This document shows positions 50,043 to 53,340 of a stretch of 63,762 nt of DNA, in pieces; position 1 is the stretch's first letter, and each line of letters starts with the position of its first letter. A program made the translations under genes and the position numbers. Source of the DNA: a virus (lineage: Duplodnaviria; Heunggongvirae; Uroviricota; Caudoviricetes); the IMG/VR virus record IMGVR_UViG_2571042862_000001; one strand, given 5' to 3'. The notes beneath the pieces are model-generated. The model made no database searches and was not told the origin of the DNA. It saw only the letters and a program-made list of their open reading frames with translations.

Positions 50043-50557
50043 ACCGTGAGTATGCATCAAATCGTCAGTTTTTCAGGTGGACGAACATCGGCCTGTCTCG
50101 TTCATCTGTTCGAAGAGGTAGTGGCATGACAATCGTAAAAACCCATACCGGCACCGTGATCACCAAAGACGGGCCGCAGGTAAAAAAACTGCACCAAACA
50201 GAGCGGATGTGGGTCGTCGGCAAAAATGAGTTTTACCACAAAGATACCGGACGCCGCCACTTTGCAGAAAATACGCGCCGTCGACTGCTGTTAGACACCA
50301 TCAAGCCTATCGAGGTGAAGCATGTTTAAACAGAACGAAAAAGCTATCGCTCAAATTGCTGATTATATCCCGCGTGCGTGCCGGGGTATGCAGTTGCAGG
50401 AAGCCAAAGCGCGCCTGGAGAAAAAAATTGCGCTCTATATTGATGACGGCTGTGATGCTGCCGTTCTTAACGCGGCGTTCGCACCAGCTCTTAACAGTCA
50501 TACTCGGGAGTCTTTTTTTTCGTGCATCGAAGCGCAACTCCGCAAAGGAGGCAGCCA

Positions 50558-51259
50558 GTGAGCAAAATTAATTACCGGGCACTGCGTGAGATAGCAAAAC
50601 AGGCAACACAGGGCGAATGGGTCGCATTTATTTCGCCGGGTACTGGTACGTATGCGGTGCATACGCCCGGTGATAAACGATGTGAAGATGTTATCAAATG
50701 GACCGGCTTTGATGGGCTGAAAAACGCAGAGAACAACGCTCGTTATGTTGCCGCATTCAACCCAAAGGTTGCACTGGCGCTACTTGGTGAAATTAAGTGC
50801 CTGGAGGACACAAATATTGATGCTATGTGTCGAATTGCAGAGCTTGAGACTAATCTCGCGGCGCTGGTGGCAGAGAACGCCGGGCTGAAACACGCAATGG
50901 CCGTAACTCTTGAGCATGTGTCGGTCACGGATGCAGGGCAGGCCGGAGTTGCTGCAATGATTATCAACGATGCCCTGCACCACAGCGAAACTCCAGCTAC
51001 CGATGCTTTTCTGGCTGAAATTCGTGCGGAAGCACGCAACGAGGGGATTAACTATACCGCCAGCCGTCTTGCTGCTGCGTTCAATCACGGATTTATCAAT
51101 AAGTCTTTGCGTGAAGTTTTCGACGTTACACGCATGATTTTGTCAGCGAAAGAAGAGTTGGCTAATGAAGCGCATCCGATTGATGGCCTGTCTGGTGAAT
51201 ATGCGGAGAAATCCCTTGAAGAATGGGCGGAACAGATTCGCAAAGGAAGCAGCCAGTGA
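50558..51259 (+). CDS. Ead/Ea22-like coiled-coil protein (paralogue A)
   Basis: GTG start after AAAGGAGG; N-terminus KINYRALREIAKQATQGEW, C-terminus ..EQIRKGSSQ. Confidence 0.45.
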   Translation: MSKINYRALREIAKQATQGEWVAFISPGTGTYAVHTPGDKRCEDVIKWTGFDGLKNAENNARYVAAFNPKVALALLGEIKCLEDTNIDAMCRIAELETNLAALVAENAGLKHAMAVTLEHVSVTDAGQAGVAAMIINDALHHSETPATDAFLAEIRAEARNEGINYTASRLAAAFNHGFINKSLREVFDVTRMILSAKEELANEAHPIDGLSGEYAEKSLEEWAEQIRKGSSQ

Positions 51260-51546
51260 ATATCGACACGACAATAACGATCGATACGCTCCTAAATACC
51301 GGTCTGGCACTTCTCGGTTGGCTTTACATCATGTCCCGTACATGGCGATGGCTGGGTTCCATTTTCCTAAAACAGTGGAAAAAACGGCGCAAACAGGAAC
51401 TACGCCAGAAGGCATTAGAAGCGTTCTATGACGCATTTGAGCTTAGCCGCATTGAACCAGGTACAACAGCCAGGATAGCGACAAAAGGCGACCTGATGAT
51501 AGTGATGTTCCGACAGGAGAGAGCAGAGAAAGGGGAATCAGCATGA
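51256..51546 (+). CDS. small membrane protein
   Basis: GTG start in repeated junction module. Confidence 0.3.
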   Translation: MNIDTTITIDTLLNTGLALLGWLYIMSRTWRWLGSIFLKQWKKRRKQELRQKALEAFYDAFELSRIEPGTTARIATKGDLMIVMFRQERAEKGESA

Positions 51547-52256
51547 AATTTTCCAAATTTTCTGAGTTGGTGAATCGTATTTTGTCCAACAACCACAGCC
51601 ATCGTCGCGATATGGATGTAACAATCGTTGTTCATTCGCCTGGCAGCATTGGTTCAACACCTTCAGTTGAGGTTCAGTCAATTCACGCTGGTTTTGATTG
51701 GGATTCCGGGAAAGTGCTTATTTTCCCATCACAGCCACTGACCACGCTAACACCAGAACAGATTACTGATATCACTGATAGTGTGCGCAAAGGTCAGTCT
51801 TGGCACGCATATCAGGAATACAAGAAGCATCAAGAGCAGTTGGAAAAATTGTCGATTGAACTGGAGGCCGCAAAACAGCGCATTGCAGAGCTGGATGGTA
51901 ATCGCACGGCGCTGGCAGTGGAGAATGCCTCAATGAAGCTGTTTATCAGGGGCTGTTGCTACGTGTTTGATGGCCAGCAGGATGAAATATCTGATGCGTA
52001 TATCTGCGCAACAGACGGAGGGATGCCGCAAATTCCAGCCACCGACGCTTTCCTGGCTGAAGTTCGGGCGCAGGGGGTGGATGCTGCTATAGAAGCTGCA
52101 AAAAATCTGGTGGCCCAAGAATATGAGTATAAGGATTTCAAAGCGGCGCAGAGTGATTGCTGTATGCACCCTGGTTCAGACCTGGTAGGGAAGGTTGAAA
52201 TGACTGAGTGGTTAGTTGACTTTGCTGCCCAGCTTCGCAAAGGAGGCAACCAGTGA
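51543..52256 (+). CDS. Ead/Ea22-like protein (paralogue B)
   Basis: shares PATDAFLAEIRA block and C-terminal ..AQLRKGGNQ with paralogue A. Confidence 0.45.
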   Translation: MKFSKFSELVNRILSNNHSHRRDMDVTIVVHSPGSIGSTPSVEVQSIHAGFDWDSGKVLIFPSQPLTTLTPEQITDITDSVRKGQSWHAYQEYKKHQEQLEKLSIELEAAKQRIAELDGNRTALAVENASMKLFIRGCCYVFDGQQDEISDAYICATDGGMPQIPATDAFLAEVRAQGVDAAIEAAKNLVAQEYEYKDFKAAQSDCCMHPGSDLVGKVEMTEWLVDFAAQLRKGGNQ

Positions 52257-52553
52257 CTGTATGTCTTATTGATAAACGTCGACGCGGGCAACAAATACCA
52301 TCTGTTGAAATGCCGAATCACACATGGTTTTGCGTACTTGATATCGATGGTATGGATACGTTGGTTGACACTCGTCATTACTGCGATACCGCAACAGCTA
52401 CTCCGGCGAAAGCAAAGAAAATGGCTGCTCTGATAGAAAACTGGACTCCACCTGATGGTTGGTGCAATGGGAATGATCGAGATTGGCACGAAAAAATGAA
52501 GGGCTATATCTGCGATTTTTTACGTAAATGCAACGGCTTCAGGGTGATGTGAT

Positions 52554-53186
52554 ATGACCAAAATTAACTATCAGGCACTGCGTGAGGCGGCAGAACGTGC
52601 AATTCCGGCAATGGAACGCCTGTTAATGTTGCCAGTTGATGATGATCTGATAAGCGAACAGGAACTTAAAGATTACGGTTTGGATATTGATGCGCTCAAC
52701 GCCTTCAAATTTCTGGCCGGACCAGTAACCGTGCTGGCACTGCTGGATGAACGGGAAAGAAACCAGCAATACATAAAACGCCGCGACCAGGAGAACGAGG
52801 ATATTGCGCTAACGGTAGGGAAGCTGAGAGTTGAGCTTGAGGAAGCAAAATCAAAACTCAACGAGCAGCGTGAGTATTACGAAGGTGTTATCTCGGATGG
52901 GAGTAAGCGTATTGCAGAACTGGAAGCGCGGGAAATAAAACCAGCCAAAGGTGAAGTTCTGGTCGTTGTATCTGGTTTTACTGGTTGCGGAAAAAGCGCC
53001 ATTGCCGGGGAAATAGAAATCGCGATGAAGGCTATTGGTGTATCGGTTAAGTGGACTAATGGCGATGCAGAAAAGCGCATGACTGGCGCTGACTGGCTGA
53101 CTGCGATTGAGATGTACAAACCAACTGTGCGCATCGTGGAAGTTAATGTGCCCCGCGCCGCTGGCATTCGCATCAAAGGAGAGTGA
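52554..53186 (+). CDS. Ead/Ea22-like protein (paralogue C)
   Basis: N-terminus TKINYQALREAAERA. Confidence 0.45.
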   Translation: MTKINYQALREAAERAIPAMERLLMLPVDDDLISEQELKDYGLDIDALNAFKFLAGPVTVLALLDERERNQQYIKRRDQENEDIALTVGKLRVELEEAKSKLNEQREYYEGVISDGSKRIAELEAREIKPAKGEVLVVVSGFTGCGKSAIAGEIEIAMKAIGVSVKWTNGDAEKRMTGADWLTAIEMYKPTVRIVEVNVPRAAGIRIKGE

Positions 53187-53340
53187 TATGGCTAAGTACA
53201 TCGTGACTATCGAAGGATTTAATGATTGCAAGGTTGTTGAGTTTGAAGCAGACACGCCAGAGGATGCCGAAGAAATAGGCAGAGACATATTCTATGAAGA
53301 ATGCAACTACGGCGTATCACCTGCTACAGAGGACTAACAC

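Follow-up and report, generated by a model that had tools for sequence, protein, structure and literature searches.

A recurrent stop/ribosome-binding-site/GTG junction as a likely boundary sequence for cassette exchange in a P1-like phage-plasmid

Results

The accessory-gene array

We analyzed a stretch of 63,762 nucleotides (nt) from a virus of the Caudoviricetes (IMG/VR record IMGVR_UViG_2571042862_000001), which is called the window in the following. The analysis centers on a 22-nt motif that is found at three gene boundaries and that comprises the end of one gene, a Shine-Dalgarno (SD) sequence, and the GTG start codon of the next gene. By its sequence, the window belongs to the P1-like phage-plasmids. 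Over 24 kb, it is 98-99% identical to P1, RCS47 and JL22, and positions 45000-50008 and the region from 56187 onward are collinear with P1 (NC_005856). Between these two parts, about 6.2 kb of lambdoid-type genes stand in place of 1.4 kb of P1, and the three junctions lie within this array. The features of the locus are compiled in Table 1.

The array contains genes of several families. With 96.3 and 124.9 bits, respectively, Ea22a and Ea22b exceeded the gathering cut-off of PF13935 (27), and this threshold was not reached by the genes at 50322-50561, 51256-51546, 51543-52256, and 52253-52552. Ea22a and Ea22b are 30% identical over about 100 amino acids (aa) in their N-terminal parts, and both contain the sequence KINY(R/Q)ALRE. 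The C-terminal halves of Ea22a and the 237-aa protein are 29% identical (E=8e-9), and this similarity includes a coiled-coil segment, the PATDAFLAE block, and the tail. The Ea22-type proteins match 10-16 PHROG families in a piecewise fashion (16 in the case of Ea22a), which is a signature of domain mosaicism. Other members of the 79-aa family end with AAQIRKGGNQ, AAQLRQGGNQ, or AAQLHQGGIQ. The stop codon of the DUF4752 gene overlaps the start codon of the 237-aa gene in the sequence ATGA at 51543-51546.

Table 1. Features of the accessory-gene array and its surroundings (positions refer to the window)
Feature	Positions	Strand	Remarks
Junction J1	50540-50561	+	CCGCAAAGGAGGCAGCCAGTGA; RKGGSQ and TGA of the 79-aa gene, SD, GTG of Ea22a
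Junction J2	51238-51259	+	TCGCAAAGGAAGCAGCCAGTGA; variant GGAAGC, tail RKGSSQ; end of Ea22a, SD, GTG of the DUF4752 gene
Junction J3	52235-52256	+	TCGCAAAGGAGGCAACCAGTGA; commonest variant, tail RKGGNQ; end of the 237-aa gene, SD, GTG of the DUF7739 gene
Second junction class	53175-53190	+	AAAGGAGAGTGA-T-ATG; ...KGE and stop of Ea22b, SD AAGGAG, ATG of the 53188-53337 gene
Ea22 N-terminal block (SKINYRALRE...)	50559-50606	+	second recombination island directly after J1; paralogous copy 52555-52602; repeat D3, 79%
PATDAFLAE(I/V)RA block	50988-51028	+	intragenic island, mosaic joint; paralogous copy 52030-52070; repeat D5, 85%
79-aa gene, phrog_1344	50322-50561	+	ends in J1; function not assigned in the PHROG family
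Ea22a, Ead/Ea22-like, 233 aa	50558-51259	+	PF13935, E=3e-27; between J1 and J2
DUF4752 gene, 96 aa	51256-51546	+	PF15944, E=1.7e-42; profile 1-83 from residue 7; GTG in J2
237-aa gene	51543-52256	+	ends in J3; C-terminal half paralogous to Ea22a; not PF13935
DUF7739 gene, 99 aa	52253-52552	+	PF24881, E=1.5e-21 from residue 1; GTG in J3
Ea22b, Ead/Ea22-like, 210 aa	52554-53186	+	PF13935, E=4.5e-36; ATG start; ends with ...GIRIKGE and stop
Lambdoid-type early accessory-gene array	50009-56186	+	replaces P1 85183-86576 (pmgT 3' end, pmgU, pmgV, upfM-O)
P1 C1-repressor operator Op88	49119-49135	+	ATTGCTCTAATAAATCT; overlapping PpmgT promoters; annotated in NC_005856

Three gene boundaries with a common sequence

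The string (T/C)CGCAAAGGA(G/A)GCA(G/A)CCAGTGA is present in three copies on the plus strand of the window, and 0.00 matches are expected by chance in shuffled sequence. The three copies were also returned by a repeat finder as a family, D1, of about 30 nt. When they were aligned together with 60-nt flanks, the likeness ended just beyond the core. In the frame of the upstream gene, the last six codons and the stop codon read CGC AAA GGA GGC A(A/G)C CAG TGA, i.e., R-K-G-G/S-S/N-Q-stop, and the encoded tails are LRKGGSQ at J1, IRKGSSQ at J2, and LRKGGNQ at J3. Each junction contains the full SD motif AAAGGAGG, followed by a spacer of 6 nt and the GTG start codon, which overlaps the TGA stop codon as GTGA in all three cases. 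The SD motif is situated inside the upstream open reading frame (ORF), is complementary to the 3'-end of the 16S rRNA, and precedes the start codon by 6 nt, within the 5-9 nt expected of a translational-coupling junction. The GTG start codons are well supported because the Pfam profiles Ead_Ea22, DUF4752 and DUF7739 align from residues 1-7 of the GTG-initiated products, and because the same 4-nt overlaps are found in the RefSeq annotation of these genes in sister plasmids.

A programmed frameshift leading to the fusion of neighboring ORFs was considered and rejected because inspection revealed no slippery site (AAC CAG TGA permits no -1 or +1 re-pairing) and because the downstream starts are independently supported by Pfam. 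A known RNA element was also rejected, as an Rfam search with E-values of the region from 48 to 56 kb yielded only a sub-threshold match to GcvB, away from the junctions. Folding of the three junctions did not reveal any significant structure (z -0.85, -0.09, and -0.76).

A sequence-only reading of the window had proposed that three gene boundaries have a sequence in common, and this was confirmed. The coordinates given there were exact for the two outer junctions, whereas the middle junction was displaced by one base (51238-51259 instead of 51237-51258), and each of the three copies deviates at one base from the consensus that had been proposed. The predicted tail ..LRKGG(S/N)Q fits J1 and J3, but not J2. 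The description of a consensus SD motif and a GTG overlapping the TGA turned out to be correct at all three junctions. The flanking genes had been regarded as paralogous Ead-like cassettes. This applies to two of the six genes, which are Ead/Ea22 genes, and to one further gene that is a partial paralogue; as a set, however, the cassettes are heterogeneous. The proposed paralogy via KINY(R/Q)ALRE holds for Ea22a and Ea22b, but Ea22b starts at an ATG and not at a junction module. The PATDAFLAE(I/V)RA block is indeed present in Ea22a and the 237-aa gene, whereas the 79-aa, DUF4752 and DUF7739 genes belong to unrelated families.

The motif joins many different genes in other genomes

Next, the motif was analyzed in other genomes. 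IMG/VR was scanned with a pattern that permitted every synonymous change, and at least 120 contigs matched. The numbers of contexts, clusters, partners and combinations given below apply to the matches listed. About six of the IMG/VR matches were due to chance, and the remainder were gene junctions of the same type. The same 21-mer was preceded by at least 19 unrelated C-termini and followed by genes of at least 12 types. Upstream partners other than Ea22 genes included the 79-aa family and DUF2737, and downstream partners included many Ea22 N-terminal variants, DUF7739, DUF4752, a 214-aa gene, a methyltransferase-like gene, and a PAPS reductase. The downstream products all start with M-S/T/N/R, which is expected because the A of GTGA is the fixed first base of codon 2.

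Taken together, phage contigs and plasmid and prophage loci yielded at least 137 distinct contexts, which comprised 26 upstream clusters and 34 downstream clusters in 83 combinations. An upstream cluster had up to 12 different partners and a downstream cluster up to 8. For 5,565 pairs of contexts, both flanks were common in 42 cases, only the left flank in 291 cases, and only the right flank in 168 cases. Homology between contexts stopped 0-24 nt ahead of the 21-mer and 0-5 nt past the GTGA, or past the Ea22 N-terminal block when both downstream genes were of the Ea22 type. The motif therefore has the properties by which a boundary sequence is recognized, i.e., a near-invariant core, unrelated neighbors, breakpoints at its edges, and flanks that reassort independently.

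The motif is also present at the hkaH/hkaG junction of HK620 (…CGCAAAGGAGGCAGCCAGTGA…). Among 5,426 complete E. coli genomes, 620 contained the 33-nt version of J3, which was situated on chromosomes in 578 places and on plasmids in 126. When each species was represented by a single genome, a scan gave 14 matches, 12 of which were chance occurrences of an SD motif and a GTG in unrelated metagenome-assembled genomes (MAGs). The two genuine matches were an Escherichia sp. contig and a short 'Sutterella' contig. A wide taxonomic spread of the motif was therefore rejected, and the element belongs to the gene pool of enterobacterial temperate phages. The latter contig (CAJKAP010000027.1, 1,374 bp, from an 'uncultured Sutterella sp.' MAG) carries a junction of the 79-aa gene with Ea22 that is typical of E. 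coli phages, and it was probably mis-binned into the Sutterella MAG.

Conservation at the nucleotide level

Among the matches listed, 109 contexts were compared position by position, and appreciable variation was confined to positions 3 and 14. The third base of the Arg codon (position 3) varied in 20 of the 109 contexts, and position 14, which distinguishes AAC from AGC (Asn/Ser), varied in 18. The fourfold-degenerate positions 9 and 12 varied in only 1 and 4 contexts, respectively, though any base had been allowed by the search pattern. GGAGG and GTG were fixed in more than 95% of the contexts, and GTGA was essentially fixed. Amino acid variants of the tail do occur, i.e., RQGGNQ, HQGGIQ, RKGSSQ, RKGGGQ, and RKGGKQ. 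Moreover, the DUF2737 gene ends with WRSGKK in HK620 and with WRKGGNQ elsewhere, with the divergence beginning at TGGCG; therefore, the tail can be grafted onto an unrelated protein.

As the fourfold-degenerate sites hardly vary and amino acid replacements are tolerated, conservation acts on the nucleotide sequence and not on the peptide. A peptide-level function of the tail was therefore rejected, the synonymous sites being as conserved as the rest. The conserved string, which includes a spacer without a known function, argues for common descent and homogenization rather than for convergence or a function of the peptide.

Gain and loss of cassettes at the junctions

Nine sister P1-like plasmids, which had been chosen without regard to the motif, were compared with the window. 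The 214-aa gene is situated directly after J1 in the loci L001 and L125-L127, and it is absent from the window, L123, and L124. The insertion starts after base 50565 of the window and ends, on the right, within the Ea22 N-terminal block. The DUF7739 gene directly after J3 is also variable. In L126-L129, precisely the region 52257-52554 is missing, and, without the DUF7739 gene, Ea22b begins with the GTG of the motif. In window coordinates, the endpoints of the insertions and deletions in P1-like plasmids are 50565/50566, 52256/52257, and 51259/52230.

The three products that are predicted for recombination between the copies in the window were constructed as queries, and 5,426 E. coli genomes were searched with them. 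The J2xJ3 product, in which the tail of Ea22a is joined to DUF7739, was found in full length in 38 records from 36 E. coli genomes, P1-like plasmids included. Plasmid p1493-4 has the order 79-aa gene, junction, Ea22a, junction, DUF7739, and Ea22b, i.e., the DUF4752 and 237-aa pair is missing, and the two segments in which it matches the window have an overlap of 27 nt at the motif. In prophage L146, the tail of Ea22a is likewise linked via the motif to DUF7739.

Further joints within the array

A second class of junctions was found at the end of Ea22b, where an ...IKGE tail and its stop codon precede an ATG. This class, which had not been used in selecting the loci, was represented by 73 contexts; both flanks were common in 37 pairs, only the left flank in 179, and only the right flank in 186. 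In an unbiased k-mer search, it ranked just after the J motif and a block at the start of DUF551. Dydecka et al. (2020, PMC7093339) noted a '+GE' tripeptide at the C-terminus of all Ea22 proteins and described its significance as unknown. In the window, K-G-E is encoded by AAA-GGA-GAG, which is an SD motif for the following gene. This offers a simple explanation, namely, that the '+GE' tail and the RKGGNQ tail of Ea22-type proteins may be translated ribosome-binding sites (RBS).

A continuity scan revealed that the whole array from 50.0 to 54.5 kb is mosaic. Breaks were found at the J sites, and also at the Ea22 N-terminal blocks, both PATDAFLAE blocks, 52720-52860, the end of Ea22b, and sites within the DUF551 gene. 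The ends of high-scoring segment pairs (HSPs) clustered at 50590-50609 and at 52590, i.e., in the Ea22 N-terminal blocks, and HSP starts peaked at 50980 and 52030, where continuity is low at the two PATDAFLAE blocks. The sequence-only reading had described the repeated junction as a recombination hot spot for cassette shuffling, and a constant cassette content in related genomes was named as the result that would speak against it. The related phage-plasmids do differ in cassette content, namely, at J1 and J3 and in the interval from J2 to J3. Shuffling at the junctions is thus supported by comparison, but the notion of a hot spot is not, as other islands are equally frequent joints.

The Ea22b block at 52720-52860 (…ALLDERERNQQYIKRRDQENEDIALT…) is common to about 87 of 126 related loci, far above its flanks, and it is the most widely conserved Ea22-family segment in the sample. 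The DUF551 gene (53341-53925) contains short conserved blocks at 53710-53740 (start of the DUF551 domain, …GATGGTTGGATAAGCTGTAGT) and at 53880-53925. In other phages, these blocks are flanked by 15-21 unrelated clusters per side and act as intragenic mosaic joints.

Genomic setting and expression of the array

The array is located in what has been termed 'variable region 8' (pmgT...humD) in a study on P1-like phage-plasmids (PMC9603915), and another study describes many genes as having been exchanged between P1-like phage-plasmids and phages by recent gene flow (PMC10879196). The sister plasmids are of the IncY/p0111 type, and the array is adjoined by hot, humD, phd/doc, lpa, and pacA. No copy of the motif was found between 70 and 94.8 kb of canonical P1. 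Parts of the array share 94-98% identity with Stx-converting, P22-like (CUS-3, HK620-type), and phiV10-like phages. In lambdoid phages and prophages, e.g., HK620 and the RecT-containing prophage L146, these genes occupy the early-left region, from the recombination genes to xis/int. In the window, the pmgT homologue (49314-50042) is truncated and refitted at about residue 232. The lxr region of P1 (86834-87529) is likewise replaced.

The stretch with Op88 and PpmgT upstream of the array is 98% identical to the pap-pmgT intergenic region of P1, and the region from 49.3 to 55.8 kb did not reveal any convincing promoter or terminator. Because Op88 and PpmgT have been kept upstream and internal signals of this kind were not found, the array is probably one transcription unit that is expressed from the C1-repressed PpmgT promoter. 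The conservation of Op88 and PpmgT 5' of the array therefore implies that the lambdoid-type genes would be under the control of P1 immunity. Two strong G+C-rich hairpins with T runs were observed in this region: one at 49168-49190, which resembles a terminator of the minus strand and separates the C1 operator from the first gene of the array, and one on the plus strand at 48560-48588, downstream of pmgS.

A mini-ORF of 27 codons at 50047-50129 (VSMHQIVSFSGGRTSACLVHLFEEVVA and stop) is the remnant of a PAPS-reductase-family gene, which is whole (873 bp) in the sister plasmids pUSDA5905_1 and pMB2910_2. About 790 bp have been deleted in frame, and the microhomology at the joint comprises only a few bases. 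The stop codon of the mini-ORF still overlaps the ATG of the following gene, and several other P1-like plasmids share the deleted form.

Discussion

The comparison of the three junctions with their counterparts in other genomes makes it likely that the repeat is a translational-coupling junction that doubles as a short conserved boundary sequence for the homologous exchange of cassettes. From the comparative data we infer that recombination takes place within the motif. Uninterrupted identity of about 18-30 nt would be offered by the motif alone, and of 60 nt or more if an Ea22 N-terminal block follows. Co-resident elements could then be recombined in register by phage single-strand-annealing recombinases (Red-beta, RecT, Erf, or Sak4) or by RecA. 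A RecT gene adjoins the array in prophage L146, and Sak4 is found in HK620. Annealing recombinases accept short and diverged homology, as has been described for Red recombination with relaxed homology (PMC2327257). A crossover within the motif would preserve the frame and the stop codon of the upstream gene and would supply the incoming gene with a ready RBS and start codon; therefore, nearly every recombinant would be expressible. The replacement of the cassette would be completed by a further crossover, either in another junction or in a conserved block within a gene, and recombination between two direct copies would delete or duplicate cassettes. The RKGGNQ peptide would be a by-product of the SD motif, and the KGE tail of the second junction class likewise. 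The linkage of single-nucleotide polymorphisms is weak and in the expected direction, i.e., position 3 follows the upstream cluster and position 14 the downstream cluster.

Several observations weigh against this proposal. Among the matches listed, the runs of uninterrupted identity that unrelated contexts have in common show a median of 18 nt, and only 15% of them are 27 nt or longer. This is short for RecA and lies at or below the usual minimum for efficient RecA recombination, which is about 23-27 bp. The evidence for exchange is all comparative, and selection for an optimal RBS alone could keep much of the motif constant. Continuity falls equally at intragenic blocks and at other gene ends, and thus the motif is not a privileged site. 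The IMG/VR sample had been chosen by the motif and was de-duplicated by exact identity only; hence, there were fewer independent events than the pair counts suggest. A search of the 5,426 E. coli genomes did not detect the J1xJ2 and J1xJ3 products, two of the three deletions that had been predicted.

The motif might instead be a mere passenger, if cassettes were to move by illegitimate recombination together with their own 5' RBS region and selection were to keep the frame, the stop codon, and coupling. The motif is indeed an ideal RBS, the identity runs between contexts are short, and the graft of the DUF2737 tail at TGGCG must once have arisen without prior homology to the motif. Furthermore, illegitimate recombination followed by selection is described in PMC3029335 as the favored general model, most phage mosaic joints being without conserved sequences. 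However, the Ea22, 214-aa and DUF7739 families are also found behind other types of junctions, so that the motif is not bound to one downstream gene, and the variants at position 3 follow the upstream and not the downstream gene. The left edge of the motif is always in the same frame, at CG, and, among the matches listed, the Arg codon and the spacer CAACCA, for which no function is known, are conserved over 26 upstream and 34 downstream clusters. This explanation accounts less well for the conserved spacer, the constant frame, and the independence from the downstream gene, and we regard it as rather unlikely. Ordinary homology is less probable still, i.e., a shared C-terminal domain whose last helix (..FAAQLRKGGNQ) is kept for protein function, the DNA repeat being just its coding sequence. 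The C-terminal halves of Ea22a and the 237-aa protein are indeed paralogous, and many Ea22-type tails contain the longer FAAQLRKGGNQ, but the same tail is present on unrelated proteins (the 79-aa phrog_1344 family, DUF2737, and others), and the sequences immediately upstream form 26 unrelated clusters among the matches listed. The equal conservation of synonymous and non-synonymous sites and the tolerated replacements also speak against it, as does the second junction class, in which an SD-encoding tail recurs with a different peptide.

In outline, the array resembles the attC arrays of integrons: a single promoter precedes ORF cassettes that lack promoters of their own, a boundary element recurs, and whole cassettes are gained and lost. 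The motif could thus be the core site at which a dedicated recombinase acts, in the way that integron integrases act at attC. We consider this extremely improbable. The motif does not contain an inverted repeat, a hairpin like that of attC, or a significant fold (z -0.09 to -0.85), there is no Rfam match, and neither an integrase in the arrays examined nor a recombinase gene consistently adjacent to the motif was found; membership in the integrons was therefore rejected. In addition, the motif is present in P1-like, lambda-like, P22-like, and phiV10-like genomes with different integrases, the right ends of the cassettes use other sequences, and, unlike in integron arrays, the boundary overlaps coding sequence and exchange is presumably homologous.

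The reading that we prefer, a coupling junction that is also a boundary sequence, combines two known principles: the element is a linker of the type of Susskind & Botstein and Clark et al., together with ordinary translational coupling. Short conserved linker or boundary sequences at the module junctions of lambdoid phages have been described by Susskind & Botstein (1978) and, for HK620, by Clark et al. (2001), both as cited in PMC3029335. Like the motif, they are short, conserved among unrelated neighbors, and situated at gene or module boundaries, their flanks reassort, and general or phage recombination has been proposed for them. In contrast to them, the motif is defined to the base as stop codon, SD motif, and start codon, it is present three times in one array, it has 83 flank combinations among the matches listed, and it reaches a P1-like myovirus phage-plasmid. 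The exact motif may already be among the boundary sequences of Clark et al.; the motif strings were not found in the literature text searched, which did not include that article. With translationally coupled ATGA and GTGA junctions, the motif has in common the SD motif 6 nt before the start codon, the 4-nt overlap, and the tight packing of operons. However, ordinary coupling does not require an identical spacer or identical upstream codons, whereas here 21 nt are nearly identical over 26 x 34 flank clusters among the matches listed. The '+GE' tripeptide (PMC7093339) is a conserved C-terminal peptide on divergent Ea22 C-termini, and Ea22b has this type of end. At the '+GE' junction, AAAGGAGAGTGA-N-ATG, the ATG follows the stop codon, whereas the GTG of the J motif overlaps it; the flanks of both are combinatorial. 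The studies on variable region 8 and on gene flow (PMC9603915, PMC10879196) operate at the level of gene content, and their passages on these subjects do not mention junction sequences.

A more far-reaching view, to which we assign a low probability, is that the junction modules (RKGGNQ followed by stop and GTG, IKGE followed by stop and ATG, and the intragenic Ea22 blocks) form a maintained 'vocabulary' of adaptors. It would be under second-order selection for the in-frame and expression-ready exchange of accessory ORFs and Ea22 domains across P1-like, lambda-like, and P22-like lineages, by general or phage recombination only. If this were true, it would be an integron-like open cassette system without a dedicated integrase, and it would possibly serve a fast-evolving repertoire for host interaction or for defense and counter-defense.

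The results bear on the debate whether phage mosaicism arises by homologous exchange at short conserved linkers or by illegitimate recombination that is filtered by selection. The usual objection to the linker model is that most joints lack conserved sequences (PMC3029335). The locus described here is a base-precise and much-replicated counter-example, with one 21-mer in 83 gene-gene combinations among the matches listed, and it is experimentally tractable. The motif is present in at least 11% of the complete E. coli genomes, it is common to P1-like plasmids and integrated lambdoid prophages, and it points to one way in which variable region 8 of P1-like phage-plasmids acquires lambdoid accessory genes. 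Nothing is overturned by these results, and the concept is not new to phage genomicists; they concern a route to mosaic phage genomes that has long been proposed and seldom been documented.

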